A stretch of DNA of 60,475 bases from Bacillota bacterium (GTDB lineage: Bacteria > Bacillota > Halanaerobiia > Halanaerobiales > DATFIM01). The position numbers were made by a program, and so were the translations under genes. The notes beneath the pieces are model-generated. The model ran no database searches and had not been told where the DNA came from. It saw only the letters and a list, made by a program, of their open reading frames with translations. The stretch is from positions 1 through 60,475 of the forward strand of contig JBNJDL010000001.1 of NCBI GenBank assembly GCA_051744825.1, read 5' to 3'. Each line of letters opens with the position of its first letter. Position 1 is the stretch's first letter. This document shows positions 1-60,382 of the stretch, in pieces.

Positions 1-84
1 ACAATTACAATCATTATGTTTAGCTACTTTTTCAGAATACATCATTTGGCATTTTCTACATATATAATAATTTTTATTACTCAT
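1..84 (-). CDS. Small Cys-rich protein, N-terminal part only (ORF runs off the left edge)
   Basis: ATG at 84..82 overlaps the stop of 77..442 (GATGAGTAA). Reads MSNKNYYICRKCQMMYSEKVAKHNDCNC with CxxC and CxC pairs. Truncated by the window. Confidence 0.35.
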   Translation of the reverse strand, partial: MSNKNYYICRKCQMMYSEKVAKHNDCNC

Positions 85-442
85 CTTCCCACCTCACAGT
101 TTTTTTAGAATTGCTTTTTATTTTCATAATAAATAGCTTAAATTTTATATAACTTATAAATCCTAATATCATTCCTTTATTGTCAAACATAATTATATCA
201 GCATGGACTTTACAAAAGTCTTCATATCTATTTTTATATCTAATATAACTACCATTAAATAATTCATCTTCATATTCTATCATATTATATTCTTCAAATT
301 TTTCTTTAAATTTATTAAAATTACTCCAGCCATATTTTTCTGTATTATTTCTAACCATTGAAATATGAGTTAACCAATCTAAAATAATAAGTATAATACT
401 AGCAGCAATTAAACTTACTAATAAAACTAACATCGCTTCCAT
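77..442 (-). CDS. Hypothetical protein with N-terminal transmembrane helix
   Basis: ORF in the packed minus-strand gene train. Hydrophobic N-terminus MEAMLVLLVSLIAASIILIILDW. Stop and start are shared with neighbours. Confidence 0.6.
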   Translation of the reverse strand: MEAMLVLLVSLIAASIILIILDWLTHISMVRNNTEKYGWSNFNKFKEKFEEYNMIEYEDELFNGSYIRYKNRYEDFCKVHADIIMFDNKGMILGFISYIKFKLFIMKIKSNSKKTVRWEDE

Positions 443-717
443 TATTCTACCTCCTCATATAATGATTGACTTCTTCTTAAATCGCCATATAAAATTATTC
501 TCATTTCATCATCTATATCACCACTATATTTTTCTAAAAAGTTAACATCTTTTGGGGTGAATTTATAATTCTTGAATAAATATTTCCAAGCAGCTAATTC
601 TGTTTCAAAGCTTTTTTCAACTAATAATCTTTTTTGTTGATAATCATAATCCCAATAAACAACACTAATATCATTTGGATAATTCCTTACATATAATTTA
701 TATGGACTCCTTCTCAT
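442..717 (-). CDS. Hypothetical protein
   Basis: ORF abuts its neighbours with no gap. No recognisable motif. Confidence 0.6.
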   Translation of the reverse strand: MRRSPYKLYVRNYPNDISVVYWDYDYQQKRLLVEKSFETELAAWKYLFKNYKFTPKDVNFLEKYSGDIDDEMRIILYGDLRRSQSLYEEVE

Positions 718-1038
718 TTATACCTCCTCCAGGATTATTTTAACTTTATTTCTATCACGATAATGCCATTTTATAATATGTCTCTGATTATTTAATTTAT
801 TAATTATAGTCTCAGATCTAATCCCAAAATAATCAGCTTCATACTCAAAAGCTTCATCAAATAATCTGTTCCCGCTTTCCAATCCTATTAACTTTAATTC
901 ATTACGGCCAGTTTGAACTAACATATAAGCTATTTCTGTTCTTTCCCCGTAACTATCTTCCATTTCAAGTATAAAAATGTCACCGGCGTTTACTAATTCA
1001 GGCTTATTATTAATTTTCAATTTATTTTTAACTATCAT
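718..1038 (-). CDS. Hypothetical protein
   Basis: ORF in the co-directional gene train, immediately followed by the next start. Confidence 0.6.
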   Translation of the reverse strand: MIVKNKLKINNKPELVNAGDIFILEMEDSYGERTEIAYMLVQTGRNELKLIGLESGNRLFDEAFEYEADYFGIRSETIINKLNNQRHIIKWHYRDRNKVKIILEEV

Positions 1039-1050
1039 TTTATCAGCTCC

Positions 1051-1563
1051 TTAATATATTTTTATAACACCTTTTAACTTCTCATCTTTCAATTCTTTAA
1101 ATTCAATATCAAACCTAAAATCATCTAACATAACTCGATAATCTTTTCTATTTGTAAATTCAATATTCTCAAAATATTTATATATTTCTTTACTTCCAAA
1201 ATTAAACATTTTTAAATACAACCAACCTATTTTATTAATAGATTTTATTGGTCTAAATAAACCATCTTTTTGTGTTATCCAAGCAACCTCATCTGGCATT
1301 TCATAAAATACATCTGAAAGCCACAATGAAAAGTTAGCTTCTATTTTTACTTTGGATTGTAACATCTGTATGTATTGTTCTGCTGCTAATTCTACATCTT
1401 CTTCAACAGTTTTTTCTGTCCCAACAAAAATATTGTATTTATCATATTCTATATCAGGCTCAAAGAATTGTGATTTATTTTTTCTAACTGCACCAACCAT
1501 ATCATCATCATATTCAAATATGCCATCATTTTTAAGTTTTTTAATCAGATCAGCTTTATTCAT
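1051..1563 (-). CDS. Hypothetical protein
   Basis: The track ORF 1051..1668 is trimmed to the ATG at 1563 (MNKADLIKKL). That ATG is preceded by GGGAGGG and overlaps the stop of 1556..1783. Confidence 0.55.
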   Translation of the reverse strand: MNKADLIKKLKNDGIFEYDDDMVGAVRKNKSQFFEPDIEYDKYNIFVGTEKTVEEDVELAAEQYIQMLQSKVKIEANFSLWLSDVFYEMPDEVAWITQKDGLFRPIKSINKIGWLYLKMFNFGSKEIYKYFENIEFTNRKDYRVMLDDFRFDIEFKELKDEKLKGVIKIY

Positions 1564-1783
1564 TATATCCCTCCCAAAAATTTCTTTCATTATATAATAT
1601 GTCATTCTCAATAAGCCACTGTTCTGCAACTTCTTTTGTGGCTTTACATAACGGAATATTATAATCAATCATTAAATCCCAGATTTTATTAGCTGGATAA
1701 AAGTCTGACATTATTTCTTCTTTATTGTTTTCAAGTATTTCTAAAATATAATCATCGCCTGAATTATACCATTCTTTTAACAT
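1556..1783 (-). CDS. Hypothetical protein
   Basis: ORF in the gene train, adjacent to the stop of 1784..2059. Confidence 0.55.
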   Translation of the reverse strand: MLKEWYNSGDDYILEILENNKEEIMSDFYPANKIWDLMIDYNIPLCKATKEVAEQWLIENDILYNERNFWEGYNE

Positions 1784-2059
1784 TTATATCACCCCTTGAA
1801 GTTTTAATTCCCCAATAACAAAATCAATCTGTTCATCAGCCATTTCTTTATATTCTATAAAGTCTCTTACAAATTTAAATTTATTATCATGCCAACCTAT
1901 TAAGATTCCAGTTTGAGTTAATTCAATTTCAACTTCAGTTCTATAATTAGGGATTTTCAATTCCCAATCATCAAAAAAGTCTTTAAAATTCATTCTTCTA
2001 ACATGGATAATTCTGCCTTCATCAGCACTCATTAATTTTATCTTTTCTTCTCTATTCAT
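1784..2059 (-). CDS. Hypothetical protein
   Basis: ORF in the gene train with an AGGGGTGAA-type RBS region upstream. Confidence 0.6.
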   Translation of the reverse strand: MNREEKIKLMSADEGRIIHVRRMNFKDFFDDWELKIPNYRTEVEIELTQTGILIGWHDNKFKFVRDFIEYKEMADEQIDFVIGELKLQGVI

Positions 2060-2074
2060 TTAATTCACCCCTTT

Positions 2075-2485
2075 TTAATATTCTTGAGTATTTAGATATT
2101 CAACAGCGGCTTCTCTTAATTCTTCTAATCTTTCACCATCAAACAGATCTTCATCAAATATTTCTAAATGAGTATAAAATTCATCTTCAGTAAAATCATA
2201 ATAATTTGCTTTATCAACTAAATCTTCATATTCTTGCCAATAGTCTTCAAGCCATTCTTGGTCTAAAGTTTCAGCTACTTCACTTCTTAAGAATCCTATT
2301 AAATATTCATAGCCATTATGAAGGAATTGTTCAACTCCTCCATTATAAACTTGGCTTGTAAATCTGCTAACAGCAAAAGCTAATTTATCATTAAAATTGA
2401 GCTTCAAAAATTCATCTCTTTCCCAACCTACTTTTTCATCTTCATCCATCTTTTTAAGCCAATCATTTAATTCTTTTATTTCCAT
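2075..2485 (-). CDS. DMP19/DUF4375-like protein (possible DNA-mimic family)
   Basis: Motif FTSQVYNGGVEQFLHNGY resembles the NGG..QF..N signature of the DMP19 family. The start is set at the ATG at 2485, after GAGGTGAATAAA; the track start GTG lies inside the RBS. Confidence 0.4.
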   Translation of the reverse strand: MEIKELNDWLKKMDEDEKVGWERDEFLKLNFNDKLAFAVSRFTSQVYNGGVEQFLHNGYEYLIGFLRSEVAETLDQEWLEDYWQEYEDLVDKANYYDFTEDEFYTHLEIFDEDLFDGERLEELREAAVEYLNTQEY

Positions 2486-2507
2486 TTTATTCACCTCTTT
2501 TGAGTTT

Positions 2508-2573
2508 TAGGCTATCTCATCAGTCCAAGGAGCCTATCCCTTGAAGACTGGGAAATGAATACCCAGTTTCGAA
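2508..2573 (-). ncRNA. Hammerhead ribozyme motif, stem II-open (type II) permutation, copy 1
   Basis: Minus strand: UUC-GAAAC-UGGG(9-nt loop)CCCA-GUC / UUCAAGG-GAUAGGCU-CCUUGGA-CUGAUGAG-AUAGCCUA. All core boxes are present in the correct order. Loop I UAGGCU is complementary to the 3' tail AGCCUA. It starts right after the stop codon of 2574..2942. Confidence 0.7.
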
Positions 2574-2942
2574 TTAAAGAATAAACATTGAGAAGTATTT
2601 TTTAGTAACATTATCTTTATTATAACTAAATCTTATCAATCTATTAGCCTCATATTGTATCACTTCTAATTCATCAACTTTTATTTCCATATTTATATAT
2701 CCTGGATTTCCGCCACCAATATTTGTTTGAATAAATAATTCAATAAATCCCGTTTTAGTAGCTCTCACATCTATATTACTTATTTTTGTATTTTCTATCA
2801 TACCTTTTCGCATTCTAGCTTCTGGTGATTGAAATTGAATGAAATCAATCTCTCTTTCTGAATAATCACTTAAGAATTCTTTAATAGACAACGCTAACTC
2901 TTCAGCTTCTTCAAAATGCTTAGTTATTAATCTTTTTTTCAT
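2574..2942 (-). CDS. Hypothetical protein
   Basis: ORF with ATG at 2942 after AAGGAGTGGATAAA. The stop TAA at 2576..2574 directly abuts the hammerhead motif. Confidence 0.6.
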   Translation of the reverse strand: MKKRLITKHFEEAEELALSIKEFLSDYSEREIDFIQFQSPEARMRKGMIENTKISNIDVRATKTGFIELFIQTNIGGGNPGYINMEIKVDELEVIQYEANRLIRFSYNKDNVTKKYFSMFIL

Positions 2943-2975
2943 TTTATCCACTCCTTTTGATTTTTGAAATTTATT

Positions 2976-3284
2976 TTAAAGTCTTTCAACTTTTGTATTT
3001 GACTTTACATAAATATCACTTTTATCAATTACAGTTATAACTTTTATTGTATTTTTTGAGAATCCAAATATTATGCTTACTTCATTATCTTCATCTATTA
3101 AAGCAACATCTTCTTCTTCATTTTGTAATTCTTGAATCTTATCTTTGCCTAAGCTCAATAAATCAGAAGCTACCAAATATTCATCTATATTTCTTTGAGC
3201 CATTCTTTCTAGACTATGTTTTGTAGCTCTTATTGAATACATCTCTTTATTAATTTTAAGTGTTGTTAGTGATTTAGATTTCAT
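2976..3284 (-). CDS. DUF4258-like small protein (putative toxin-fold family)
   Basis: KHSLERMAQRNIDE resembles the H..ER..eRgI motif of DUF4258. It is the first gene after an early promoter. Confidence 0.3.
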   Translation of the reverse strand: MKSKSLTTLKINKEMYSIRATKHSLERMAQRNIDEYLVASDLLSLGKDKIQELQNEEEDVALIDEDNEVSIIFGFSKNTIKVITVIDKSDIYVKSNTKVERL

Positions 3285-3332
3285 TTTTTGTGCCTCCCTT
3301 TTTTAGTGCCTCTTTTGTTACTCTCTAATTAT

Positions 3333-3361
3333 ATTATATCACGTCTGGAGCCATTTGTAAA
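3333..3361 (-). promoter_or_regulatory. Early sigma70-type promoter, family 1 copy 1 (TTTACA-N17-TATAAT)
   Basis: Minus strand: GGGGTTTACAAATGGCTCCAGACGTGATATAATATAATTAGAGAG. The spacing was counted as exactly 17 nt. An A/T-rich UP-like tract lies upstream and a conserved leader downstream. Confidence 0.75.
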
Positions 3362-3402
3362 CCCCTAAAAGCAAATTAATTCAATTATTTTTAAATTATT
3401 TT

Positions 3403-3466
3403 TTAGTCTGTCTCATCAGTGATAAGGGACTAATCTTATCAGACTGGGATCTCTCCCAGTTTCGAC
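3403..3466 (-). ncRNA. Hammerhead ribozyme motif, type II permutation, copy 2
   Basis: Minus strand: GUC-GAAAC-UGGGA-GAGA-UCCCA-GUC / UGAUAAG-AUUAGUCC-CUUAUCA-CUGAUGAG-ACAGACUAA. Loop I UUAGUC pairs with the tail GACUAA. It lies between the stop of 3479..3964 and promoter 3333..3361. Confidence 0.7.
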
Positions 3467-3478
3467 TCTATGTATTTT

Positions 3479-3964
3479 TTAGTTATTATCTATAACTGTA
3501 ATCTCATCAGCATATCTGCTAATTATTTCAAAAGAAGTTGAGATTAATTCTGCTTTTTCTCTTATTATATTTTCAGGAACTGTTCTTGGTCTTTGAGCAT
3601 TTCTTTTAAGTGAAGTTTGAAGACTGACTTGGACATAAACTACTTCTGTTGTATATCCAGCTGATTGAAGTTCTACAATTCTTTTCACCATTTTTTCTGA
3701 GTTTGTTCCTGTGCCATCTATTATCATATTTTTATCATTTGCTATTGCGTTATATCTTTTCTTATTAGCTTGCTTCTTAGACCATTCATGAATTGCTGCA
3801 GGATTCTCTGGGTCATATTCAGGGTGTTGTTGTTTTTCTAAGTCAGGGTCAACCATTACATATTCTTCAACTTCAGTTTCAAAATCTCTATTTAAGATGT
3901 AAGATTTGCCAGCTCCAGGAAGTCCCATTGTTAAAATTGCGTGCTTTTCATTTCTTTTAGTCAT
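3479..3964 (-). CDS. P-loop kinase (zeta-toxin / AAA_33-like nucleotide or polynucleotide kinase family)
   Basis: Walker A GLPGAGKS. IIDGTGTN segment. About 160 aa in size. Confidence 0.55.
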   Translation of the reverse strand: MTKRNEKHAILTMGLPGAGKSYILNRDFETEVEEYVMVDPDLEKQQHPEYDPENPAAIHEWSKKQANKKRYNAIANDKNMIIDGTGTNSEKMVKRIVELQSAGYTTEVVYVQVSLQTSLKRNAQRPRTVPENIIREKAELISTSFEIISRYADEITVIDNN

Positions 3965-4030
3965 TTTAAAATCTCTCCTTTTGAGTTTTTGAGAATTTTT
4001 TTAATGCCTCTTTTGTTACCTTCTAATTAT

Positions 4031-4059
4031 ATTATATCGCAAATGAAGGGGTTTGTAAA
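4031..4059 (-). promoter_or_regulatory. Early promoter, family 1 copy 2
   Basis: Minus strand: GGGTTTACAAACCCCTTCATTTGCGATATAATATAATTAGAAGG, giving TTTACA-N17-TATAAT. Confidence 0.75.
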
Positions 4060-4097
4060 CCCTTTTTTGCAAGTTTTTTAAGTTTTTTTCAATTATT

Positions 4098-5174
4098 TTA
4101 AAAATATTTCCCAAATTTTAAATCAAAATATTCTTTAGCTATTTCTGGATTATCAGCTTCAAATTTTTCTAAGTATCTCCAAGCTGCACCTTTTCTGCCA
4201 CTTTTTAGTATTCCACCTTTCTTTCTGCTATAATCTCTAAAAGTCATTTTAGTAAAAAAGCTTGGCTGATTACACCAACTCGCTAGATTTACATACATTC
4301 CGCGATATAAACTATCTTCGTATTTTTTGTATCTCATTATATAAGGAAGGCTTTTGTTTTCACCTAAAATCCTAATTCTTTCAAATGTATTTTTAATATC
4401 ATTTTTCCAAAATTCTTTATCATATTTTTTATTTTTATCAAAAGCTGTTAATACATAAAACCTTAATCTATTATTATTATATTTTCGCCATAATTTTAAT
4501 TTATTTTCTATAATTTCCCTATCTTCTATATTATCAAAAGCAAATATAAAATTGCCCCTACTTTTACTATTATTTAATAAATAAATTATCTCTTCATTTA
4601 TCAACCTAAAATCTAATCCTTGCTTAAATTCATAAGGTTTCCCAGTATCTATTATATTATTAAAAATTTCAACTCTATTTTTATATCCTAAAAAATTATC
4701 ATCTAAAAATACAAAATATTTATTTTTCTTATCATCAAATTCTTCAAGACTACTCCACCTTTCTACTTTAGTTTTATTTCTATTAACACAAAATTCACAT
4801 TGTCTAAAGCAAAATCTAGTCAAAAATCCTATCGAATGATTTTTATAATATTTTCCATCAACATCTATATTATTATATAAATTATAATCTGGTTTATAAT
4901 GTTCAATCTCATCAGCTAAAAAATCTTTTTTATCATAATTAAAACCAGTCCCACCATAAAATATATTTTTATTATTTTTAAAATCTATTGGGATATTAGT
5001 TTTAGTAAATACTTTTGATAAGAATATTTTATCATAATTATCTACCTTATCATAATCATCAATAAGTTTTATTTTATATCCTTTATTTTTATAATAATTG
5101 CTAATCTTCATTAAAGCTAAATTTGGGAATCTAGTTCCTTTATCTAATAAATCAGAATCTATTAATCCAATCAT
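4098..5174 (-). CDS. Radical SAM enzyme (CxxxCxxC), unknown substrate
   Basis: FCFRQCEFCVN carries the canonical CX3CX2C cluster motif. The N-terminal segment looks like a Rossmann or B12-binding-like region. Confidence 0.6.
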   Translation of the reverse strand: MIGLIDSDLLDKGTRFPNLALMKISNYYKNKGYKIKLIDDYDKVDNYDKIFLSKVFTKTNIPIDFKNNKNIFYGGTGFNYDKKDFLADEIEHYKPDYNLYNNIDVDGKYYKNHSIGFLTRFCFRQCEFCVNRNKTKVERWSSLEEFDDKKNKYFVFLDDNFLGYKNRVEIFNNIIDTGKPYEFKQGLDFRLINEEIIYLLNNSKSRGNFIFAFDNIEDREIIENKLKLWRKYNNNRLRFYVLTAFDKNKKYDKEFWKNDIKNTFERIRILGENKSLPYIMRYKKYEDSLYRGMYVNLASWCNQPSFFTKMTFRDYSRKKGGILKSGRKGAAWRYLEKFEADNPEIAKEYFDLKFGKYF

Positions 5175-5761
5175 GATTCATACCTCCTAATTAATTCTAC
5201 AACTTTTTTATAATAATTTTCATTACCTGTAAATGAATTATAGTTTTGTCCTTTATTATATCTTATTATACTTAGCAATCTATCCCCTTTGTTATTAAGC
5301 CAAGCTAAAAATGATATAATATATTTGGCTTGTAATTTATCTGAATTTATTATTTCATAATCAGGAACTTCTTTAAATCCATAAATCTTATTTAACATAT
5401 CAATAGTAGTTTTACGCATTGAAATCCAACCTAAACTTTTGCCTTGATCTAAGCTTTTATAATTTACAAATCTAGTTTCATGCAATACAATAAAAAATGC
5501 ATCTTTCCAAAGTCTATGCGGGTGAATATCTGTTTCAAATTTAGTAGAATAATATTTTAAATAAAATACCCTATCGCCAGCTTGTTTTTCATTCATATCT
5601 TTTATTCCATTCCATTCCGCGAATTCTTTATTATAGTCTTCAGCTATATTAATAAAATAATTTATTGTATTTCTATCTTCAGCTTCCACTATTGAATAAA
5701 ACAAAATTGAAATCAAAAATGTTGTTAATAAAATTAATATAAATATTTTTAATAGTTTCAT
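5171..5761 (-). CDS. Secreted or membrane-anchored protein, weakly lytic-transglycosylase-like
   Basis: N-terminal hydrophobic signal or anchor. HETRF...GKSLGWISM is only loosely similar to the SLT E-S...G-L-M-Q motif. Confidence 0.3.
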   Translation of the reverse strand: MKLLKIFILILLTTFLISILFYSIVEAEDRNTINYFINIAEDYNKEFAEWNGIKDMNEKQAGDRVFYLKYYSTKFETDIHPHRLWKDAFFIVLHETRFVNYKSLDQGKSLGWISMRKTTIDMLNKIYGFKEVPDYEIINSDKLQAKYIISFLAWLNNKGDRLLSIIRYNKGQNYNSFTGNENYYKKVVELIRRYES

Positions 5762-5772
5762 TTAATCACTCC

Positions 5773-6279
5773 TTAAAATTTATTAAACAAAATCAACGCC
5801 ATTACAGTTTCTACTGAAATAGGCTCATAATTTATTAATTCAACAGAAACACAAAAATGATTATTATCTTTCCATTTACTATTTTCATAAAACAATCCAT
5901 GAATATGACCATGGATATTAATTTGATTATTTTCAACTTCAATTGGTCTATGAGTAAATATTATATTTTTATCGTATTCATATTTATCAAATGCATCTTC
6001 AAATCCCATTCTATCTAAAAGTTTAGTTCTTGATTGTTGATCATGATTTCCTATTATTAAATATTTTTTACCATTCAACTGATTAAAAATTTCAAATTGT
6101 TTTTCAGTATTAGTCAAGGCAAAATCTCCTAAATGATAAACTATGTCATCTTCTTTAACTTTTTTATTCCAATTATGAATTAATTTTTTATCCATTTCAT
6201 CTGCGTTTTTAAATGGTCTATTTTCATATTTAATTATATTCTCATGACCAAAATGTGTATCAGCTATTAACCATTCCAT
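5773..6279 (-). CDS. Calcineurin-like metallophosphoesterase
   Basis: ADTHFGH, GDF, GNHD and HGHIH motifs occur in order. The start is set at MEWLIAD (ATG 6279) after AAAGGGGATGAAAAA. Confidence 0.75.
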   Translation of the reverse strand: MEWLIADTHFGHENIIKYENRPFKNADEMDKKLIHNWNKKVKEDDIVYHLGDFALTNTEKQFEIFNQLNGKKYLIIGNHDQQSRTKLLDRMGFEDAFDKYEYDKNIIFTHRPIEVENNQINIHGHIHGLFYENSKWKDNNHFCVSVELINYEPISVETVMALILFNKF

Positions 6280-6327
6280 TTTTTCATCCCCTTTATGTAT
6301 TACAAGGAGGAATTTCACCTCCTCATT

Positions 6328-7092
6328 TTAAGCTTCTTTTAATTGCTCTTTTAAATATTGTTTTGCTCCATCTAAAATTAAACTTATATATTGATGAGAT
6401 TTATCTAACTCTTCAGCTATTTCTTGAAGATTTTTCTGCTCAGTATCTATCCCATAATATTTATATATAATCTTTTTCTGTAATTCCGGAAGCTTTTTTA
6501 TTTCTTTGGTTAATTTATCAAACAATTCTCTTTGTCTTACATAATCAAAATGAGTTTTATTATCTTTTGATATTACATCACCAGCTAATTCTATTATATA
6601 ATCATAAGATACTATCTCAGAAAATGTTTGTTCAATTAAAAGACATTTATCATAACTCAAATCACTATTCTCAGATATTAATTTTGGAGTAATTTCTTTA
6701 TTATGCCTATCTTTTAATTCATTTTTAACAGCATTATATTTATTTAATTCTTCAAACATATTTTCTGGTATTTTTATTTTTGTATCCCTATATCTTATTA
6801 TAGAATGTTTTATCCAAAAACTAGCATAAGTTGAGAATTTTACATTTCTATCTGAATCAAATTTATCTATAGCTTTAACTAAACCTAAATATCCTTGCTG
6901 AATTAAATCTTCTAAATTATTATTTACATTATATTTTTGAGCTATGCTAATTGCCATACTCATGCATGATTTAATTAATTTATCTTTAGCTTCTTTATCA
7001 CCTTCTTGGGCTTTTTTAGCTAATTCTATTTGGTCTGATTTATTTAAATTATTATATTCTCCAGCTTGTTTTTTATATTCTAAAATATCCAT
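6328..7092 (-). CDS. RNA polymerase sigma factor, sigma-70 family (regions 2-4)
   Basis: Region 2: YLGLVKAIDKFD...FSTYASFWIKHSI. Region 4 HTH: LQEIAEELDKSHQYISLI. Confidence 0.8.
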   Translation of the reverse strand: MDILEYKKQAGEYNNLNKSDQIELAKKAQEGDKEAKDKLIKSCMSMAISIAQKYNVNNNLEDLIQQGYLGLVKAIDKFDSDRNVKFSTYASFWIKHSIIRYRDTKIKIPENMFEELNKYNAVKNELKDRHNKEITPKLISENSDLSYDKCLLIEQTFSEIVSYDYIIELAGDVISKDNKTHFDYVRQRELFDKLTKEIKKLPELQKKIIYKYYGIDTEQKNLQEIAEELDKSHQYISLILDGAKQYLKEQLKEA

Positions 7093-7119
7093 TATTTCAC
7101 CGCCTCTATCAGCATTTTA

Positions 7120-9384
7120 TTAACCACACTTAGACCAGCCACAATTTCTACAACTTGAACATCCACCTTCATGTTCTAACTTAAATCCACATTCTGGGCA
7201 TTTAGCTTCATCTTTTATTTCAACATCAGTTTTAACTTCTTTAGTTTTTTCTATAATATCAATTTCATCTGTGTGATTTATTTTTTCTTTTATTTCTTTT
7301 AATTTTAAAGCAATTGCTCCAGCGCAGCTTGCCCCTGGACTAACATCTTTTCCTTTACCTCTTGCAGCTTGATAAGCTGGGCAACTTCCTGCACTTAATA
7401 ATTGGTCAATTACATCATCTAATTTTATTCCACCTCTCAAAGATAATGAAATCAATCTTGATGTTGCTCTAGTGAATATCATACAACCTCCATTAGCTGA
7501 TTCAGTAAAAGTCTCAATAATATTATCATCATCATCAACAACAATTATAAGCCACATTGTGCCACAACCTGTGTCAAGTTTATATCTATAGCTTTTAGCT
7601 TTTTCTTGAGCGTCTCTAATTTCGCCTCTTTTAAGTTTATTATTTTTATTTGATTTTCCTTTTGTTTTTATATATGCTTCTGTATATGCCTCTATAAGTT
7701 TTTTATCTTCATTTTCATCTTCTTCATTTAAAACTTGGACTTGTCTGCTTCCATTCCTATAAATAGTTATTCCTTTTAATTGCCTCATAAATGCTTCTTT
7801 ATAAATAAAACTAACATCATCTTTAGTTGCATTTTCTGGGAGGTTAATTGTTTTAGATACTGCACTTCCAACATTTTTCTGCCAAGCAGCTTGCATTAAT
7901 AAATGGTCAATAGGATCAATATTTAAAGCTGTTCTTAAAGTATCTTTAGAAGCAACTTTAGTAAAATCATATTCTAATTGTGTTTTATTTCCATCCCCAT
8001 CAGTATGAGTATATTTTAAGCTAAAAAATGGCTCAATCCCATAACTAGTATTTGCTATTAAAGCTCTACTTCCCGTCGGAGCAACAGTTGTCAAAACTGC
8101 ATTTCTTCTAGGAGTTCTAATATCAGTATTATCAAAACCAGGAAATTCTCCTTTTTCTTCAGCTAGTTTTTCGCTATAATTAATAGCTGTATCATTAATG
8201 AATTCAGATAATTCTTCAGCTAAATCTCTTGCTTTTTTAGTATCATAAGGAATATCTAAATACATCAACATCTCATGAAATCCCATAACTCCAATCCCTA
8301 TTTTTCTATATTCTAAAGCTTTTTCTTCTAATTCTGGGAGTGGATAATCATTCATATCAATTACATCATCTAAAAACCTAACTGCATTTTCGACTATAGT
8401 TTCTAAATAATCCCAAGCAACTTCATAATTTATTGGCTTATTATCTACAAAATCAACAGCTCTTAACATATTAGCTAAATTAATTGCCCCTAAAATGCAT
8501 GATTCATAAGGAAGCAGAGGTTGCTCGCCGCATACATTTACTCCTTCAATTCTTTCATTAATTGGATGCTTTTCGTTTATTGTGTCTAAAAATATTAATC
8601 CTGGCTCTCCATTTTTATGAGCATATTCTACTATTAAATCAAACAATCCAACTGCGCTAACTGTGTCAACTACAGAATTATCTTTAGGACTTATTAAATC
8701 AAATTCTTCTTCATTCATAACTGCATCCATAAAATCATCAGTGATTCCAACTGAGATATTAAAATTAGTTAACTGTTTTTCAAGTAAAGTATTTTTTAAA
8801 ACTTCAGCTTCTTTTTTATTTAATTGAGATTTCATTGATTCATATATTTGTTTATTTTTATCATTAAGTTCACCTTTAGAAGTTACAAAATCAACTATAT
8901 CTGGATGATCTACTCTAAGAACTCCCATATTAGCGCCTTTTCTTCTTCCGCCTTGTTTTACAATATCAGTTGCTCTATCAAAAACTTTCATGAATGACAT
9001 CGGCCCACTTGAAACTCCATCAATATCGCCAACTCTTGCGCCTGATTCTCTTAATCTACTAAAAGCAAAACCAGTCCCACTCCCGGCTTTATTTACTAAA
9101 GCAAGTTCTTTTATAGCTTCAAATATTGAATCCATTGAGTCGTCTACTGGGAGAACATTGCAGGCTGACATATATTGTTCTTCAGTCCCTGCATTCATTA
9201 GACATGGACTATTAGGAATAAAATCCATATTAGTTAACATTGCTTCAAATTCTTCATACCATAAAACTGAATCAATTTCAGCTTCTGAAACAACATCAGC
9301 TACTCTTCTTGAAATATCTTGCCAATCTTCTTCTCCATCTAATAAGTATCTATCTTTTAAAAGTTGTTGAATTCTTTGCTCCAT
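7120..9384 (-). CDS. nrdJ: Ribonucleotide reductase, class II (adenosylcobalamin-dependent type) with C-terminal zinc ribbon
   Basis: NVCGEQPL active-site loop and TVAPTGS. C-terminal CPECG...CSSCRNCG. The start is set at MEQRIQQ (ATG 9384) after AGGAGG. Confidence 0.85.
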   Translation of the reverse strand: MEQRIQQLLKDRYLLDGEEDWQDISRRVADVVSEAEIDSVLWYEEFEAMLTNMDFIPNSPCLMNAGTEEQYMSACNVLPVDDSMDSIFEAIKELALVNKAGSGTGFAFSRLRESGARVGDIDGVSSGPMSFMKVFDRATDIVKQGGRRKGANMGVLRVDHPDIVDFVTSKGELNDKNKQIYESMKSQLNKKEAEVLKNTLLEKQLTNFNISVGITDDFMDAVMNEEEFDLISPKDNSVVDTVSAVGLFDLIVEYAHKNGEPGLIFLDTINEKHPINERIEGVNVCGEQPLLPYESCILGAINLANMLRAVDFVDNKPINYEVAWDYLETIVENAVRFLDDVIDMNDYPLPELEEKALEYRKIGIGVMGFHEMLMYLDIPYDTKKARDLAEELSEFINDTAINYSEKLAEEKGEFPGFDNTDIRTPRRNAVLTTVAPTGSRALIANTSYGIEPFFSLKYTHTDGDGNKTQLEYDFTKVASKDTLRTALNIDPIDHLLMQAAWQKNVGSAVSKTINLPENATKDDVSFIYKEAFMRQLKGITIYRNGSRQVQVLNEEDENEDKKLIEAYTEAYIKTKGKSNKNNKLKRGEIRDAQEKAKSYRYKLDTGCGTMWLIIVVDDDDNIIETFTESANGGCMIFTRATSRLISLSLRGGIKLDDVIDQLLSAGSCPAYQAARGKGKDVSPGASCAGAIALKLKEIKEKINHTDEIDIIEKTKEVKTDVEIKDEAKCPECGFKLEHEGGCSSCRNCGWSKCG

Positions 9385-9394
9385 TTTATACCTC

Positions 9395-9613
9395 CTATTT
9401 ATATTTATCTTCATTGAATATATTTTTTAAAGATTGTAATTTGTTGTTTATATAAATTACATATAAGATTACATAACTGAAACTAACTATAATAACTATT
9501 TTTGGCCCATAATAAATTCCATAGAATACTACAGTAAATCCTAAAACCGCTAACATCAACCAAAACATTATCCAACCTAATAATTCAAGAGGTTTAATCA
9601 GAATCACCCCCAT
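9395..9613 (-). CDS. Small two-helix membrane protein
   Basis: Two hydrophobic stretches (WIMFWLMLAVLGFTVVFYGIYYGPKIVIIVSFSYVILYVI). Confidence 0.5.
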   Translation of the reverse strand: MGVILIKPLELLGWIMFWLMLAVLGFTVVFYGIYYGPKIVIIVSFSYVILYVIYINNKLQSLKNIFNEDKYK

Positions 9614-10178
9614 TTATCATCTCAGGAAATGTAAGATTTTTATCTAAATAATTTCTAAAGTATTCCCATTCAACTAAACTAGAATGTTTTCTTTGAGAAT
9701 AAATAGTTTTCAACTGAAGATAATTAGTTGTAATTCTAGCTGTTAATTCCAATCCCATTGGAGAAGTTGCCATTATTTCTTGAAATATTGTTCTTTTGAC
9801 TTCTTTACTTTCAATGTCATTATAATCCTCAATTTTCTCTTCTAAAATATCAATTACTCTTTCATCAACAAAATCGCTGCATTGCTTTTTAATATCCATA
9901 TCTAATATTTTGTGCATTTTAGATTGACTTGAAATAATATCAGCAAAATGATAACGTCCAAATTGAAGCCACCAATATTGAGGAGCTGTAATATCAGCAT
10001 GAACTACAATTCCTTTTAAAGCACAATCATGACCACTCCCAATTGGAGCTTTAGCTAATTTTTCAAGTCTTTTATAATCTTTAGTTTCAACTATATTTTT
10101 TATCTCAGTTGATTTTGGATAACCGCTAGCAACTAAAGTTTCTTCAATATCATATTCCCTTAATTTATTTATTTTCAT
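9594..10178 (-). CDS. ThyX-like protein (FAD-dependent thymidylate synthase fold) with a divergent signature motif
   Basis: GHDCALKGIVVHADITAPQYWWLQFGRYHFADIISSQSKMH aligns by eye to the ThyX block ...QLvRHRiaSySqqSqRY. RYH replaces RHR. Confidence 0.45.
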   Translation of the reverse strand: MKINKLREYDIEETLVASGYPKSTEIKNIVETKDYKRLEKLAKAPIGSGHDCALKGIVVHADITAPQYWWLQFGRYHFADIISSQSKMHKILDMDIKKQCSDFVDERVIDILEEKIEDYNDIESKEVKRTIFQEIMATSPMGLELTARITTNYLQLKTIYSQRKHSSLVEWEYFRNYLDKNLTFPEMINGGDSD

Positions 10179-10179
10179 A

Positions 10180-10572
10180 TTAATTCCTCCATGCTATTTT
10201 ATAATTATTTTCTAAATACTTTTTATTAAAATTAAATTTTTGATTATCATCTGTTGTTGTTACATATTCTTCGTTATTTTCATATATTTCTAATATTTTT
10301 TTAGCATTAAATATTCCTTTTTTATTTTCTATAATATCGCCTTTTTTAAATTTAAAATCTTCAGCGGATAAATTATCTACAAAATCTTTAGCTTTCATTG
10401 CTGCCTCAGCTGGGCCTACTTCATTACATTCATATATTGTAGATTCGCTAACTATCTCTTTTACTATTGAATTCCACCCATACAACATATTTCTTAATAT
10501 TATTTTTTTATCTTTATATTCAAAAACTATTTCATAACAATCATCAAAAGGAATGTCAAAAGTTTTACTCAT
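10180..10572 (-). CDS. Hypothetical protein with FKxGD repeat (paralog group)
   Basis: The start is set at ATG 10572 (MSKTFDIP) after GGAGGG, overlapping the upstream stop. Contains FKKGDIIENKKG, which is shared with 10565..11152 and 11323..11691. Confidence 0.5.
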   Translation of the reverse strand: MSKTFDIPFDDCYEIVFEYKDKKIILRNMLYGWNSIVKEIVSESTIYECNEVGPAEAAMKAKDFVDNLSAEDFKFKKGDIIENKKGIFNAKKILEIYENNEEYVTTTDDNQKFNFNKKYLENNYKIAWRN

Positions 10573-11152
10573 CAGAATCCCTCCACAATAAATAATAATT
10601 ATCTTCAATATATGCTTTGTTATAATACAATTTATCTTTAAGTATTTCTGTGACTAAATAATGTTGCCTATCTTCATCATATTTTATAATTTTTTTATTA
10701 TTATATTCATCATCAGTTCCTATTATATCTCCAGCTTTAAATCTATTTTCTGCAATTATTTTTAGACTATTTTTACTAAACATATCATTCAAAAGATCAC
10801 CTTCAGAATCAATATAACTAACTGCATATCTATCCCCATAATAATCTTCTTCATCTGCTATCCCGAATATAGTTCCTTTATGATTATCATTAATTATAAC
10901 TTTGTCGCCGACTTTAAAACTTTCTGTTTTACAAATCTTTTCAATCATTTCTGGCCCCCAAGTCCAATCTTCATCACCCTCTAAATATATATATTCTTTA
11001 TCATAATCAATTTTTTCAACAGTCATTTTACTGCCTCTATATTTACCCATTAGTTTAGTGAAATAAATAGTATTTCCATATAGCTTTTCTTCAATTAAAT
11101 CATTTCTAATTATAACTTCATCACCAATTTCAAGTTCATCAATATTAATCAT
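10565..11152 (-). CDS. Hypothetical protein with three (L/F)x(I/V/A)GD(E/K/I)(V/I)I repeats
   Basis: LEIGDEVIIRND, FKVGDKVIINDN and FKAGDIIGTDD. The block YAVSYIDSEGDLL is shared with 11323..11691. Confidence 0.55.
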   Translation of the reverse strand: MINIDELEIGDEVIIRNDLIEEKLYGNTIYFTKLMGKYRGSKMTVEKIDYDKEYIYLEGDEDWTWGPEMIEKICKTESFKVGDKVIINDNHKGTIFGIADEEDYYGDRYAVSYIDSEGDLLNDMFSKNSLKIIAENRFKAGDIIGTDDEYNNKKIIKYDEDRQHYLVTEILKDKLYYNKAYIEDNYYLLWRDSDE

Positions 11153-11691: not shown

Positions 11692-11742
11692 TTTATCCCC
11701 TCCATATTTTTATTATAACATAAATAATTGACTTTGTAAAAT

Positions 11743-15822: not shown

Positions 15823-15851
15823 ATTATAACATGTTTCAGGGGATTTGTAAA
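15823..15851 (-). promoter_or_regulatory. Early promoter, family 1 copy 3
   Basis: Minus strand: GGGGTTTACAAATCCCCTGAAACATGTTATAATTAATATAGAAGG, giving TTTACA-N17-TATAAT. Confidence 0.7.
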
Positions 15852-15879
15852 CCCCTAAATGAAAGTTTTTTATATTTTT

Positions 15880-15945
15880 TTAATCTATCTCATCAGAGTG
15901 AAGTGATTAATCTTCACTGACTGGGAACTTAATCCCAGTTTCGAA
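15880..15945 (-). ncRNA. Hammerhead ribozyme motif, type II permutation, copy 3
   Basis: Minus strand: UUC-GAAAC-UGGGA-UUAAGU-UCCCA-GUC / AGUGAAG-AUUAAUCA-CUUCACU-CUGAUGAG-AUAGAUUAA. Loop I UUAAUC pairs with the tail GAUUAA. It starts 3 nt after the stop of 15948..16190. Confidence 0.7.
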
Positions 15946-15947
15946 TT

Positions 15948-16190
15948 TTATAGAAAATCTTTTTTAATTGCGTCTTCTATATATTCAATTATATTTTCTT
16001 CCCCATAATATTCTATTGGATCAACGCTATCTCTTAAAGTCTCATCAAAAATTGGAACTGTAATTGCAAATCCCTTATATTCAAAAAACGGCAGATAGTC
16101 AATATCATCATAACCTCTATTGATTTTTTCAAATACATCTTTAGCAACATCTTCAACTCTCTTTAATAATAATTCATTTTTAATTTCCAT
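15948..16190 (-). CDS. Hypothetical protein
   Basis: ORF with ATG 16190 after AAGGAGTGGATAAA. Confidence 0.55.
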   Translation of the reverse strand: MEIKNELLLKRVEDVAKDVFEKINRGYDDIDYLPFFEYKGFAITVPIFDETLRDSVDPIEYYGEENIIEYIEDAIKKDFL

Positions 16191-16253
16191 TTTATCCACT
16201 CCTTTTGATTTTTGAGTTTTTGAGCAGTTTTAAATCTTACTCAGGATTTTATT

Positions 16254-16571: not shown

Positions 16572-16600
16572 ATTATATCATGTATTGAGTAGTTTGTAAA
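16572..16600 (-). promoter_or_regulatory. Early promoter, family 1 copy 4
   Basis: Minus strand: GGGGTTTACAAACTACTCAATACATGATATAATATAATTAGAAGGTAAGAAAATAAGG. Confidence 0.75.
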
Positions 16601-18680: not shown

Positions 18681-21278
18681 TTAATAAATATTTGTATTCA
18701 TGTTTTGTAAGAATTGATTCCACTTGATAGTTCTTCTCCAGTAAGTTTTAGAATTAAATTGTAAAGCTCCATATTCTTGCAACTTTTCAATTACTCTTTT
18801 ATTTGCATATCTTTTAGGAACTCTTTCAATAAAATCTTCTTCAGATTTGAATGGTGCTCTTTTACCAATCTCTTCAGCTGTAGTTTTACCAATCCCTTTT
18901 ATTTTCATAATTCCTTCTTGAATAACTTTTTCACCTTCAACTTCCTGAATTGTAAAATCTGCTCCTCCATTAACATGAGCTAATAAAATAAGAATATCAT
19001 TTTGTGTAGCAGCTGCTAAATATTTATTTATTTTATAGTCATGTTTTTCATTTTTAAGAAGTGCATAAAAGAATTCTATCGGATAATAATATTTTAACCA
19101 AGCTGTATAGAATGAAGTAATAGAATATGCAGCACCGTGCCCCTTATTAAATAAGTAAGCTGTCATTTGATTAAATAATTCATTAGCTTCATTTTCAGTT
19201 AATCCATTATTAGAAGCCCCTTTTATAAATTCATTTTTAACTTCTTCATCTTCACCTAAAGCTTTCATAATATAATCAGTTTTATCCCAATCAAGTTCGC
19301 CTAAATCCCTACAAATTCTCATAACCTGTTCTTGAAATATTATAGCTCCATAGGTTTCTTTAGCGTATTCATAAAAAGTTCCATCTTTATTTACTTCACC
19401 ATTTTTAGCTCTTATATATTCATCAAGAATTCCTAATTGTTTTGGAGCCGGTCTATTTAAAGCATTGCAGGCTATTAGTTCATGAATATTTTTTGGATTA
19501 ACTCTTTGCAAAACATCAACTGCACCAGGTTTTTCAAATTGAAATACCCCAACACTTTTACCTTCAGACAACATCTTATAGACATTTTTATCTTCTAAAT
19601 ATTCTTCTTTCAATTCTACTCCAACTTTCTTTTCTACATCATTTATTACAGACAAAGTTGATAAACCTAAAACATCCATTTTAAGAACACCAATATCACT
19701 CAAACCATCTAAATCATAAGCTGTTTGCAAACTTCCTTTATATTTTTGTAGTCCAACATAATTTGTAATATCATCTGGAGCTATTGCAATTCCTGCTGCA
19801 TGTTTTCCAGTAAATCTAGTTTGATTATATAACCTTTGGAAGTGCTCAAGATAATTATATTTTTTATCATATTTCCTTAATTTAGCATTATTCTGTAATT
19901 CAGCTAAAGGTGGTCTATCCCCACCATCGATTATTCTTGACAATTCTGATTTTATATCATCCCTATCATCATCAGGAATATCAAGAACTTTAGCTAAATC
20001 ATTCATCAAATTCTTTTCTTTATAGTATCCAAAAGTTGAAATATGAGCTGATTTTCCTTCATATTTTTTAAGCAAATAATCTAATATTTCATCCCTTCTA
20101 TTTGCATCAAAATCCATATCAATATCAGGCATTTTCTTCTTTTCTTTACGCATAAATCTTTCAAAGTCAGTCCCAAATATTATTGGATCTACATCAGTTA
20201 AACCTAAAGAATAAGCTAATAAACTTCCACCAACTGAGCCTCTTCCAAAACCATATCTAATTCCATTATCTTTTGCATATTCAACAATATCATAACAAAG
20301 TAAAAAGTAATCATCATACCCTTGGGAATGAATTACATCTAACTCAAATTCCAATTGATTTATATATTCTTCAGTATTCTTTTCTTTTTTATCAAGCCCA
20401 TTATAAGCCAATTCTTTTAACATTTTTGGTGATGGTTTTTCCCAATCTTGGTCAGGCATCATATTATCAAAATCTAATTCAACATTAACTTTATTGACTA
20501 ATTCTTCTGTGTTTTTTATAAGCGGCTCAATATCAATATCTGGATTTACATTATTTAATAAAGTCTTTAATTGTTCTTCAGTCGGCATGTATCGATTTTC
20601 ATATACCGGCCCAGGATTTTTATCTTTAATAGCCATCATTAGTCTATAAGTATCCCAAGCGTCAGCTTCTGTATAATGAGAATCATTTGTTATAATAACT
20701 GGAGTATCTGTTTTATCTCCTAATCTAACTATAGTAGAATTTATTTTAGGCTGAATATCTAAATCAACAGGCATAACTTCTAAATAAAAATCATCACCAA
20801 ATATTGATTTAAATTTATTAACTATTTCAATTAAGTTTTCATCTGACATTCCATTTGTAATCATCTTTGGAATATACCCACCGGCACAAGCTGTTGACAT
20901 TATTAAACCTTCATGATATTTTTCTAATAATTCAAAAGTAAAGTTTGGTTTATAATGATAATAATCTCTACTGGCTTCAGTCTGTAATTTCATTAAATTC
21001 TGATAACCTTTCATATTTTTAGCTAATATGACTATATGGTATCTATCATTTTCTTTGCTAAATTCAGGCATAAAATACCCTTCAACACCTAAAACTGGTT
21101 TTATATCATGTTTTTTACAAGCATTATAATGATTTATTAATCCACTAATATCTCCATGATCTGTTATTCCTAAAGCTGGTTGGCCAATTTTTGCCGCATA
21201 TTCTGCCGCTTGATTACAATCCCCAAATCCATCCCAACTACTGAACATTGAGTGTCTATGCAAATTACTCCATGTCAT
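18681..21278 (-). CDS. dnaE: DNA polymerase III alpha-type replicative polymerase (PHP + Pol IIIA domains)
   Basis: N-terminal PHP region HRHSMFS...GITDHG. Also GRGSVGGSLLAYSLGLTDVDP, PDIDMDF and a C-terminal HhH-like KIKGIGKTTAEEI. Confidence 0.85.
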   Translation of the reverse strand: MTWSNLHRHSMFSSWDGFGDCNQAAEYAAKIGQPALGITDHGDISGLINHYNACKKHDIKPVLGVEGYFMPEFSKENDRYHIVILAKNMKGYQNLMKLQTEASRDYYHYKPNFTFELLEKYHEGLIMSTACAGGYIPKMITNGMSDENLIEIVNKFKSIFGDDFYLEVMPVDLDIQPKINSTIVRLGDKTDTPVIITNDSHYTEADAWDTYRLMMAIKDKNPGPVYENRYMPTEEQLKTLLNNVNPDIDIEPLIKNTEELVNKVNVELDFDNMMPDQDWEKPSPKMLKELAYNGLDKKEKNTEEYINQLEFELDVIHSQGYDDYFLLCYDIVEYAKDNGIRYGFGRGSVGGSLLAYSLGLTDVDPIIFGTDFERFMRKEKKKMPDIDMDFDANRRDEILDYLLKKYEGKSAHISTFGYYKEKNLMNDLAKVLDIPDDDRDDIKSELSRIIDGGDRPPLAELQNNAKLRKYDKKYNYLEHFQRLYNQTRFTGKHAAGIAIAPDDITNYVGLQKYKGSLQTAYDLDGLSDIGVLKMDVLGLSTLSVINDVEKKVGVELKEEYLEDKNVYKMLSEGKSVGVFQFEKPGAVDVLQRVNPKNIHELIACNALNRPAPKQLGILDEYIRAKNGEVNKDGTFYEYAKETYGAIIFQEQVMRICRDLGELDWDKTDYIMKALGEDEEVKNEFIKGASNNGLTENEANELFNQMTAYLFNKGHGAAYSITSFYTAWLKYYYPIEFFYALLKNEKHDYKINKYLAAATQNDILILLAHVNGGADFTIQEVEGEKVIQEGIMKIKGIGKTTAEEIGKRAPFKSEEDFIERVPKRYANKRVIEKLQEYGALQFNSKTYWRRTIKWNQFLQNMNTNIY

Positions 21279-27892: not shown

Positions 27893-27921
27893 ATTATATC
27901 ATGTTTTCTGCACTTTGTAAA
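27893..27921 (-). promoter_or_regulatory. Early promoter, family 1 copy 6 (leftward member of a divergent pair)
   Basis: Minus strand: GGGGTTTACAAAGTGCAGAAAACATGATATAATATAATTAGAAGGTAAGAAAATAAGG. Confidence 0.75.
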
Positions 27922-28025: not shown

Positions 28026-28075
28026 ATAATTAGAGAGTAACAAAAGGGACACTAAAAAAAAGAGGAGTGAATAAA

Positions 28076-28264
28076 ATGTATAAAAGATTAAAAATAAAGG
28101 CGGCTAAAAAAGAGATAAGCAAATTAAGAAAGACTGGCAAGATTTTAGTTCCACAAAATACAGCTGATATAATTGAAGGATTATTAAGTAACTCAACAAT
28201 GATGACTTTAAAATTTGAAAAGGTTTATAATAATGTAGTTAAAATTACTAAGGAGGGGATTTAA
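28076..28264 (+). CDS. Hypothetical basic protein
   Basis: ATG 28076 after AGAGGAGTGAATAAA. First gene of the only plus-strand operon. Confidence 0.5.
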   Translation: MYKRLKIKAAKKEISKLRKTGKILVPQNTADIIEGLLSNSTMMTLKFEKVYNNVVKITKEGI

Positions 28265-28265
28265 T

Positions 28266-28556
28266 ATGTTAAAAACTTATCAAGATAAAATTTTAGTAGA
28301 AAGATATAAAAGTAAAAATGAAGACTTTGATTTTAATAGAGTAATCAATTTCACACTTGTCGGAAGAGATAAAGCTCTTGTTCTTTATGAAAGAGAAGAT
28401 GAAGATATTGATTTTATAAAAATATTCAGAGATGATAACAATGAAATGAATATAGAAGTTAGAACAATGTTCGCTGGTGATATTAAAAACAAAAGTCACC
28501 TCGGATCCATAATGTTAATTTTATTAGATGAGTGGGAAGAATTAAAAAATATATAA
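28266..28556 (+). CDS. Hypothetical protein
   Basis: ATG 28266 after AAGGAGGGGATTTAAT. Confidence 0.55.
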   Translation: MLKTYQDKILVERYKSKNEDFDFNRVINFTLVGRDKALVLYEREDEDIDFIKIFRDDNNEMNIEVRTMFAGDIKNKSHLGSIMLILLDEWEELKNI

Positions 28557-60221: not shown

Positions 60222-60297
60222 TGGTTGCGGCAGGCAGATTCGAACTGCCAGCTTTGGGATATGAACCCAACGAGTTAAACCGTTACTCTATGCCGCT
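60222..60297 (-). tRNA. tRNA-Met (CAU), initiator-like
   Basis: Hand-folded 76-nt cloverleaf with encoded CCA. Anticodon loop UUCAUAU. GGG:CCC closes the anticodon stem. A11:U24 pair. Position 1:72 is an A-A mismatch. Confidence 0.8.
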
Positions 60298-60305
60298 AAA
60301 TTTTA

Positions 60306-60382
60306 TGGAGCTGGGAATGAGATTTGAACTCATAACCTGCTATTTACAAAACAGCTGCTCTTCCAAATTGAGCTATCCCAGC
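60306..60382 (-). tRNA. tRNA-Thr (UGU)
   Basis: Hand-folded 77-nt cloverleaf. Acceptor GCUGGGA/UCCCAGC. Anticodon loop UUUGUAA. T-loop UUCAAAU. CCA is encoded. Confidence 0.8.

Follow-up and report, generated by a model that had tools for sequence, protein, structure and literature searches.

The stretch of DNA analysed here, called the window throughout, comprises the 60,475 nucleotides (nt) from position 1 to 60,475 of contig JBNJDL010000001.1 (assembly GCA_051744825.1, assigned to a bacterium of the Bacillota). It corresponds to an undescribed phage of 23-35% GC with nearly all genes on the minus strand. Between genes of this phage, the minus strand carries three copies of a type II hammerhead motif, at 2505-2574 (copy 1), 3401-3467 (copy 2) and 15878-15946 (copy 3). 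Copies 1 and 2 are recognised by sequence, by the Rfam family Hammerhead_II (RF02276) and by a covariance model described below (R1), and copy 3 by sequence and R1. Judged by its sequence, the motif is a genuine, textbook-type hammerhead RNA for which self-cleavage is predicted, and the three copies are very probably paralogous, intact self-cleaving ribozymes contained in the minus-strand mRNAs of the phage. They represent a new example of a class known from phages and prophages since 2011 and not a new kind of element; structurally and catalytically, they offer no novelty.

Fold and detection of the three copies

A preliminary description of positions 2508-2573 had read copy 1 as a hammerhead, and its reading matches the sequence exactly. 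From 2576 downwards, the minus strand runs TAA-UUC-GAAAC-UGGG-[UAUUCAUUU]-CCCA-GUC-UUCAAGG-[GAUAGGCU]-CCUUGGA-CUGAUGA-GAU-AGCCUA, with the type II topology and the invariant boxes that had been named. The GAAA box occupies 2570-2567, stem III (ACUGGG/CCCAGU) 2567-2562 and 2552-2547 with its loop at 2561-2553, stem I (UUCAAGG/CCUUGGA) 2545-2539 and 2530-2524 with loop I at 2538-2531, and the CUGAUGA box 2523-2517. Stem II consists of two base pairs (U2572-C2571 with G2516-A2515). The 6-bp pseudoknot proposed between loop I and the 3' tail is also present, UAGGCU (2536-2531) being perfectly complementary to AGCCUA (2513-2508). C17 is nucleotide 2546, and the cleavage that had been predicted between 2546 and 2545 agrees with the hammerhead rule (3' of H17).

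In copy 2, the GAAA box is found at 3463-3460, stem III at 3460-3454/3449-3443 with a GAGA tetraloop, C17 at 3442 (predicted cleavage between 3442 and 3441), stem I at 3441-3435/3426-3420 and CUGAUGA at 3419-3413. Stem II has three base pairs (G3466-U3465-C3464 with G3412-A3411-C3410), and the pseudoknot joins UUAGUC (3433-3428) to GACUAA (3408-3403). The corresponding elements of copy 3 are GAAA at 15942-15939, stem III at 15939-15933/15926-15920, C17 at 15919 (predicted cleavage between 15919 and 15918), stem I at 15918-15912/15903-15897, CUGAUGA at 15896-15890, a stem II of 2 bp and a pseudoknot between UUAAUC (15910-15905) and GAUUAA (15885-15880).

All three copies show the type II order, that is GAAA, stem III hairpin, GUC, stem I hairpin and CUGAUGA, with stem II open; the lengths of stems I and III are 7 bp and 6-7 bp, respectively. 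The invariant core (C3-U4-G5-A6-N7-G8-A9, G12-A13-A14, A15.1-U16.1, and H17 not G) is complete in each of them. The pairs adjacent to the core are canonical in all three stems, as in the acceptance rule of Perreault et al. (2011; PMC3088659), who described natural type II hammerheads: in every copy 10.1-11.1 is G-C and 15.1-16.1 is A-U, while 1.1-2.1 is U-A, U-A and A-U in copies 1, 2 and 3, respectively. In copies 1 and 3 the third position of stem II is a U/U mismatch, which follows a G-C and an A-U pair. The preliminary description had called a stem II of 2-3 bp and a promoterless site between two cistrons unusual. Both are in fact documented norms of the class, as is the pseudoknot, and with a pseudoknot even a stem II of 1 bp suffices for activity (Perreault et al., 2011; PMC3088659).

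The pattern GAAAC-N(8-38)-GTC-N(10-40)-CTGATGA matches the window three times, always on the coding strand, as compared to 0.06 matches expected from shuffled sequences. R1 was built from 35 distinct type II hammerheads of other viral contigs and includes no sequence of the window; its sources were obtained by a pattern scan of IMG/VR, which gave 26 viral loci. With filters off, R1 finds exactly three matches in the 60-kb window (copy 1, 55.9 bits, E = 2e-14; copy 2, 69.7 bits; copy 3, 61.8 bits, E = 3e-16; range of E-values 1e-18 to 2e-14), the next best reaching 12.6 bits; since the retrieval pattern fixed the sequence of stem III, part of the R1 score reflects the choice of relatives, a bias of which the Rfam scores are free. 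When the Rfam filters were relaxed, RF02276 gave 44.3 bits for copy 1 (2574-2506; E = 4e-8 locally and 8e-6 for the whole window) and 40.3 bits for copy 2 (3467-3402), both above the gathering score of 37. The three copies announced in the preliminary description are therefore found by the pattern scan and by R1 alike, and covariance models bear out the assignment, RF02276 for copies 1 and 2 and R1, with 56-70 bits, for all three. A chance origin of the motif is excluded.

Scanned with the default "gathering" settings of Rfam, the 60-kb window yielded two tRNAs only; the speed filters missed copies 1 and 2, although these are above threshold. The practical lesson is that default Rfam filters can miss above-threshold matches in AT-rich phage DNA, as they did twice here. 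A whole-window scan at E <= 1 lists the two tRNAs, Hammerhead_II and a chance snoRNA match, and nothing assignable to the twister, twister-sister, pistol, hatchet or HDV-like classes. The stem III hairpin is not an intrinsic terminator either: it is followed by GUC and stem I and not by a U-tract, and two terminator scans did not report these sites. Four other CTGATGAG sites (3503, 4908, 10568 and 44490) lie inside open reading frames (ORFs) and are not hammerheads.

Covariation, descent and relatives

Covariation was assessed in an alignment of 45 distinct sequences, which was fitted to the model and whose relatives had been retrieved with the pattern that fixes stem III; in this alignment, 94.1% of the cells of stems I, II and III and of the pseudoknot are paired, as compared to 72.3% in shuffles (none of 500 reached the observed value), and the paired cells fall to 27-42% when the partners are slid. 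Double changes occur at 16 of the 20 pairs and all four helices covary. The pseudoknot helix taken alone is 83% paired family-wide, with compensatory changes at four of its five pairs.

The same can be seen among the copies of the window. Their stem I reads U-A, U-G, C-G, A-U, A-U, G-C, G-C in copy 1, U-A, G-C, A-U, U-A, A-U, A-U, G-C in copy 2 and A-U, G-C, U-A, G-C, A-U, A-U, G-C in copy 3, with both-sided changes at 5/7 pairs. The three pseudoknots, of 6 bp each, share one register, which is that of the family, and change on both sides in two columns. The six core pairs of stem III (A-U, C-G, U-A, G-C, G-C, G-C) are identical throughout, and a seventh pair is missing in copy 1 (U/U) and is A-U in copies 2 and 3. 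Thus, the earlier statement that the other copies change stem I, stem III and the pseudoknot in a compensatory way is correct for stem I and for two pairs of the pseudoknot, and does not hold for stem III.

The three copies are mutually nearest relatives, with 70-78% identity. This fits an origin by duplication inside the phage genome, after which the copies diverged while their structure remained constrained. That the cores stayed intact while the stems diverged to this extent through compensatory changes argues for selection on the structure.

Hammerheads of the subtype with stem III ACUGGG/CCCAGU were found at 26 loci in 2.9 million viral contigs. In 32 million genome contigs, a relaxed pattern retrieved three contigs of metagenome-assembled genomes and the strict pattern none, so the subtype appears to be mostly virus-borne. 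One viral contig, L026 (IMGVR_UViG_3300033551_000003, positions 1-11100), contains 18 R1 matches in some 11 kb. They occupy almost all of its gene boundaries, and most are followed by UUAGGAGA and a start codon. Mutated cores are present among these matches (CUGAGGA, CCGAUGA, UUGAAGA, AUGAUUA and CUGACGC), and the array is a mixture of intact and decayed ribozymes.

The closest relative of the phage that we found, metagenome contig L085 (DnaE 69% identical), has no hammerhead, even with filters off, and at the corresponding place it has different small genes. No hammerhead was detected at the 19 metagenome loci with DnaE relatives (L085 included), and for this reason conserved synteny could not be shown. 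The 58 IMG/VR loci (549 kb) around homologues of a radical-SAM-like gene gave no hammerhead as well. On this evidence, the ribozymes are accessories that occur sporadically and do not belong to the conserved equipment of this phage lineage. Such a distribution, like the decayed copies of L026, would suit selfish or relic elements that bring the phage no benefit. This explanation, or one in which the motif is a product of chance or an artefact, is nevertheless hardly credible for the window, where three cores are intact in spite of the divergence of the stems and the copies are placed precisely at gene boundaries, on the coding strand only; chance is also excluded by three pattern matches against 0.06 expected and by E-values of 1e-14 to 1e-18.

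Gene boundaries and promoter cassettes

All three copies are on the coding (minus) strand and closely follow a stop codon, which lies 0, 11 and 1 nt upstream of copies 1, 2 and 3, respectively. The upstream cistron of copy 1 (2574-2951, minus strand; 125 residues as listed, no family match) ends with a TAA (2576-2574) that adjoins the 5' end of the ribozyme. About 8 nt past the tail there is a Shine-Dalgarno sequence, GAGGTG (2497-2492), and then the ATG at 2485 of the downstream cistron (2075-2485, minus strand; 136 residues), whose product shows a weak DMP19-like match (22.1 bits, below the Pfam cut-off). The gap between the two ORFs, 88 nt, is made up of the ribozyme and the Shine-Dalgarno sequence; as the preliminary description had noted, it has no promoter. 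Cleavage of copy 1 would therefore cut a polycistronic RNA begun at the putative promoter at 3361.

This is the typical arrangement of stop codon, ribozyme and ribosome-binding site (RBS). In fact, among 47 distinct contexts of this type of hammerhead, those of the window included, a Shine-Dalgarno sequence and a start codon lie within about 30 nt downstream of the tail in 42, and in 31 a long ORF ends no more than 20 nt upstream. The contexts that lack such an RBS within this distance include copies 2 and 3 of the window and one ribozyme of two further viral contigs, L011 and L018.

The short distance from the stop codon (0-1 nt in copies 1 and 3) would also allow a terminating ribosome to cover stem II, GAAA and the 5' half of stem III, so that cleavage might report the translation of the upstream ORF or, alternatively, the Mg2+ or ionic state. 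Regulated cleavage of phage hammerheads has been raised as a possibility (Perreault et al., 2011; PMC3088659), and folding could be marginal, and hence tunable, owing to the shortness of stem II and to the weakness of the AU-rich pseudoknot in copy 3. However, the copies have no extra sensing domain and show the canonical architecture of fast cleavers, and genome compaction predicts tight packing after a stop codon equally well. We consider regulated cleavage very improbable.

In the minus-strand region from 27921 to 1, a promoter cassette of some 110 nt occurs repeatedly; it consists of an AT-rich upstream element, AAAAACTT..TTAGGGGTTTACAAA, N, TG-n-TATAAT, the leader ATAATTAGAAGGTAA and a Shine-Dalgarno sequence. 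Its -35 part, GGGGTTTACAAA, is followed by a 17-nt spacer ending in TG, and the leader is conserved. Cassettes are located at 27921, 27440, 16600, 15851, 4059 and 3361, and a weaker one at 11740 (minus strand). From its sequence, this cassette looks like the early-promoter family of the phage, and each copy is a putative promoter; gene content and promoter layout make the label "early mRNA", used in the preliminary description, plausible.

Two of these cassettes lie directly behind hammerheads, and both show an 11/12 consensus match and an extended -10. The first (3333-3361, minus strand; TTTACA, 17 nt, TG-n-TATAAT) has its -35 hexamer beginning 39 nt past the end of copy 2, and its predicted unit comprises a DUF4258-like gene (3284-2976), the 125-residue gene, copy 1 and later genes. 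The -35 hexamer of the second (15823-15851, minus strand) begins 26 nt past the end of copy 3, and this cassette is predicted to drive an SprT-like gene (15767-14811). In front of copy 2, with its stop codon 11 nt away, there is a gene for a P-loop kinase of the zeta-toxin/AAA_33/polynucleotide-kinase-like type (3479-3964, minus strand), predicted to be transcribed from the cassette at 4059. Copy 3 is preceded by an 83-residue ORF (15948-16199, minus strand; TAA at 15950-15948, 1 nt before the ribozyme), the last gene of the unit of the cassette at 16600. The order is thus cassette 4059, kinase, copy 2, cassette 3361, DUF4258-like gene, 125-residue gene (2951-2574), copy 1, DMP19-like gene and further genes in one part of the region, and cassette 16600, a 92-residue ORF, the 83-residue ORF (16199-15948), copy 3, cassette 15851 and the SprT-like gene in the other. 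The block of two genes at 3284-2574 is thus enclosed by copy 2 on one side and copy 1 on the other, and copy 3 is at another unit boundary.

The arrangement of copies 2 and 3 recurs elsewhere. In L011 (5531-5601, minus strand) and L018 (2119-2189, plus strand), unrelated low-GC phage contigs of about 153 kb, the hammerhead is followed by about 35 nt, TTGACA-18-TATAAT, a Shine-Dalgarno sequence and ATG.

Intergenic terminator-like hairpins were not found on the coding strand of 1-25000 in two scans. The strongest coding-strand hairpins of this kind are in the late region, at 44961 and 48480, and one of them (-13.8 kcal/mol) immediately follows the gene for the major capsid protein. Some type II hammerheads, in this phage as in the unrelated L011 and L018, could be replacements for terminators at the RNA level: copies 2 and 3 would mainly cut read-through RNA before the next promoter, giving each unit a discrete mRNA and defining the 3' ends in the 25-kb early region. 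Besides the missing terminators, the distances of 39 and 26 nt to strong cassettes and the shared layout of L011 and L018 favour this idea. As an addition to it, the 5'-OH RNA might be phosphorylated by the adjacent kinase and then degraded in the 5'-to-3' direction; such degradation could dislodge the polymerase. The kinase matches Zeta_toxin (1.9e-18), AAA_33 and PHROG 505 ("polynucleotide kinase"); however, its best solved-structure match is the zeta toxin, a sugar-nucleotide kinase. A kinase of 5'-OH RNA would act on the hammerhead products, and the link of this particular one to the ribozymes is not supported beyond adjacency. Moreover, copy 1 and 42 of the 47 contexts precede an RBS and not a promoter, the cassettes at 16600, 11740 and 4059 have neither ribozyme nor terminator in front of them, and RNA cleavage alone does not halt the polymerase. 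On balance, a role of copies 2 and 3 mainly as terminator replacements seems unlikely to us, with or without a contribution of the kinase.

Other genes of the neighbourhood deserve a brief comment. The DUF4258-like protein (2976-3284) scores 24.0 bits, just under the Pfam cut-off. Together with its DMP19-like neighbour (DMP19 being a DNA-mimic family), it recalls ardA of A. tumefaciens, which encodes a DNA mimic and is flanked by hammerheads; both matches are below curated thresholds. A PADLOC scan of eight neighbouring small proteins gave nothing significant.

As to the phage, the window is apparently a complete phage genome and not an integrated prophage. It encodes the terminase (57927-59354), the major capsid protein (45021-45986), DnaE (18681-21278) and RNR (7120-9414), as well as a portal protein and RuvC. 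Plus-strand genes (65 and 96 residues) are present only at 28067-28556, the sole stretch in which the GC skew is not strongly negative; this stretch, between the lysis/structural module and the first cassette at 27921, is probably a divergent regulatory switch region. Adjacent genes for tRNA-Met (CAT) and tRNA-Thr (TGT) lie at 60222-60382 (minus strand), upstream of the terminase genes. An SBP_bac_1 solute-binding protein (1.9e-25) and an MptE-like protein (1.7e-48), encoded among the head-morphogenesis genes at 51122-52339 and 52366-54108 (minus strand), are unusual passengers for a structural module. A megablast search of 50,697 phage records with a 20-kb query gave no match, an IMG/VR search through the SprT-like and DMP19-like neighbour proteins gave no relatives, and an exact-protein look-up gave no record. 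The nearest phage DnaE is 38% identical and comes from phages of gut Clostridia.

Probable role in transcript processing and comparison with known systems

The most likely function of the three hammerheads is the processing of mRNA at the boundaries of cistrons and transcription units. As RNA polymerase passes, the stem III hairpin would form first and the stem I hairpin second. The 3' tail would then pair with loop I (6 bp), keep stem I in parallel with the 2-3 bp of stem II and close the conserved core. According to the chemistry established for the family, the 2'-OH of C17 would attack its own phosphate with the assistance of Mg, leaving a 2',3'-cyclic phosphate upstream and a 5'-OH downstream. 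Cleavage would presumably be co-transcriptional, and the products should part at once because only the two or three pairs of stem II join them. The upstream cistron would retain its stop codon and end in the stem III hairpin plus GUC>p, and the downstream RNA would start with a base-paired 5'-OH nucleotide inside the fold of stem I and the pseudoknot. In this way, one transcript would give rise to separate mRNAs with independent stability and translation. Copy 1 would detach the two genes nearest the promoter from the remainder of the operon, making the fates of the neighbouring cistrons independent. Copies 2 and 3, which come after the last gene of a unit and before the next cassette, would set the 3' ends of read-through RNA in a region that has no terminators.

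A number of observations weigh against this picture. As to the fold, copies 1 and 3 have a stem II of only 2 bp plus a U/U mismatch, and the pseudoknot of copy 3 is weak, with a duplex energy of -4.3 kcal/mol as compared to -8.1 and -6.1 kcal/mol in copies 1 and 2. Copy 3 (15946-15878) gave no match to RF02276 at E <= 10 in two tries with shrinking windows, even in an 81-nt window. Nested minimum-free-energy folding recovers the native fold for copy 3 only, and for copies 1 and 2 favours alternative helices that use the strands of the pseudoknot; this outcome was judged uninformative, because the algorithm cannot model pseudoknots. As regards function, L085 shows that the elements are dispensable for the phage lineage. 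A ribozyme precedes only two of the five cassettes in 1-25000, so that substitution for a terminator is no general rule. In hosts with RNase J1, moreover, a 5'-OH can mark an RNA for decay, as in the precedent of glmS. The direction of any effect on stability is consequently uncertain and would depend on the RNases of the host.

Phage-encoded hammerheads have been suggested to divide polycistronic transcripts into RNAs that differ in stability or translation, a role that is not concretely established, and their biological role is still unsettled (2019 review, PMC6765202). The window offers a clean natural layout for probing it, with three intact paralogous ribozymes in one co-directional early region, one copy in the common site between stop codon and RBS and two directly upstream of well-defined cassettes in the absence of terminators. 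The placement of these two copies directly upstream of promoter cassettes is the only point that is mildly new.

RiboJ insulators and the pair of glmS and RNase J1 are examples in which self-cleavage yields a defined 5'-OH end that alters both the fate of the downstream mRNA and its translation context. RiboJ is engineered and glmS depends on a metabolite, and neither is related in sequence to the hammerheads of the window.

Further comparisons come from hammerheads themselves. In the solved pseudoknot hammerhead (PMC11300833), a 6-bp pseudoknot likewise provides stabilisation instead of loop-loop contacts; in that form, however, helix II is replaced by the pseudoknot, which involves an extra stem-loop, whereas the copies of the window keep stem II and join loop I to the tail. 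HHphage of the haloviruses HF1 and HF2 is located in the early region, a few nt before a start codon, within a polycistronic transcript, and a mapped 5' end is close to its cleavage site; it differs in being a variant-core hammerhead of an archaeal virus, with a proposed salt-dependent role (Perreault et al., 2011; PMC3088659). With the type II hammerheads of RF02276 and Perreault et al. (PMC3088659), our copies share the core, the circular permutation, the register of the GA(C/U)A-tail and a pseudoknot of at least 4 bp that starts one nucleotide after a stem II of 2-3 bp. They depart from RF02276 in the AU-rich stem I and pseudoknot and in the U/U at the third stem II position of copies 1 and 3, and copy 3 is missed by this model.

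A parallel in gene arrangement is given by the clustered prophage hammerheads (the ardA triple of A. tumefaciens, C. scindens and A. caulinodans), in which several coding-strand copies also bracket a short gene block and for which the conversion of long transcripts into gene-length mRNAs has been proposed (PMC3088659). Clustered hammerheads cleave polycistronic prophage RNAs of about 2 kb in vitro, and circular or spliced products were sought in comparable clusters and not detected (Perreault et al., 2011; PMC3088659); in the window, too, nothing supports the idea that the segment from copy 2 to copy 1 gives rise to a circular or spliced RNA. Unlike the clusters of prophages, the hammerheads of the window belong to a phage genome equipped with terminase, portal, capsid, DnaE and RNR genes, and two of them directly precede promoter cassettes rather than an RBS.

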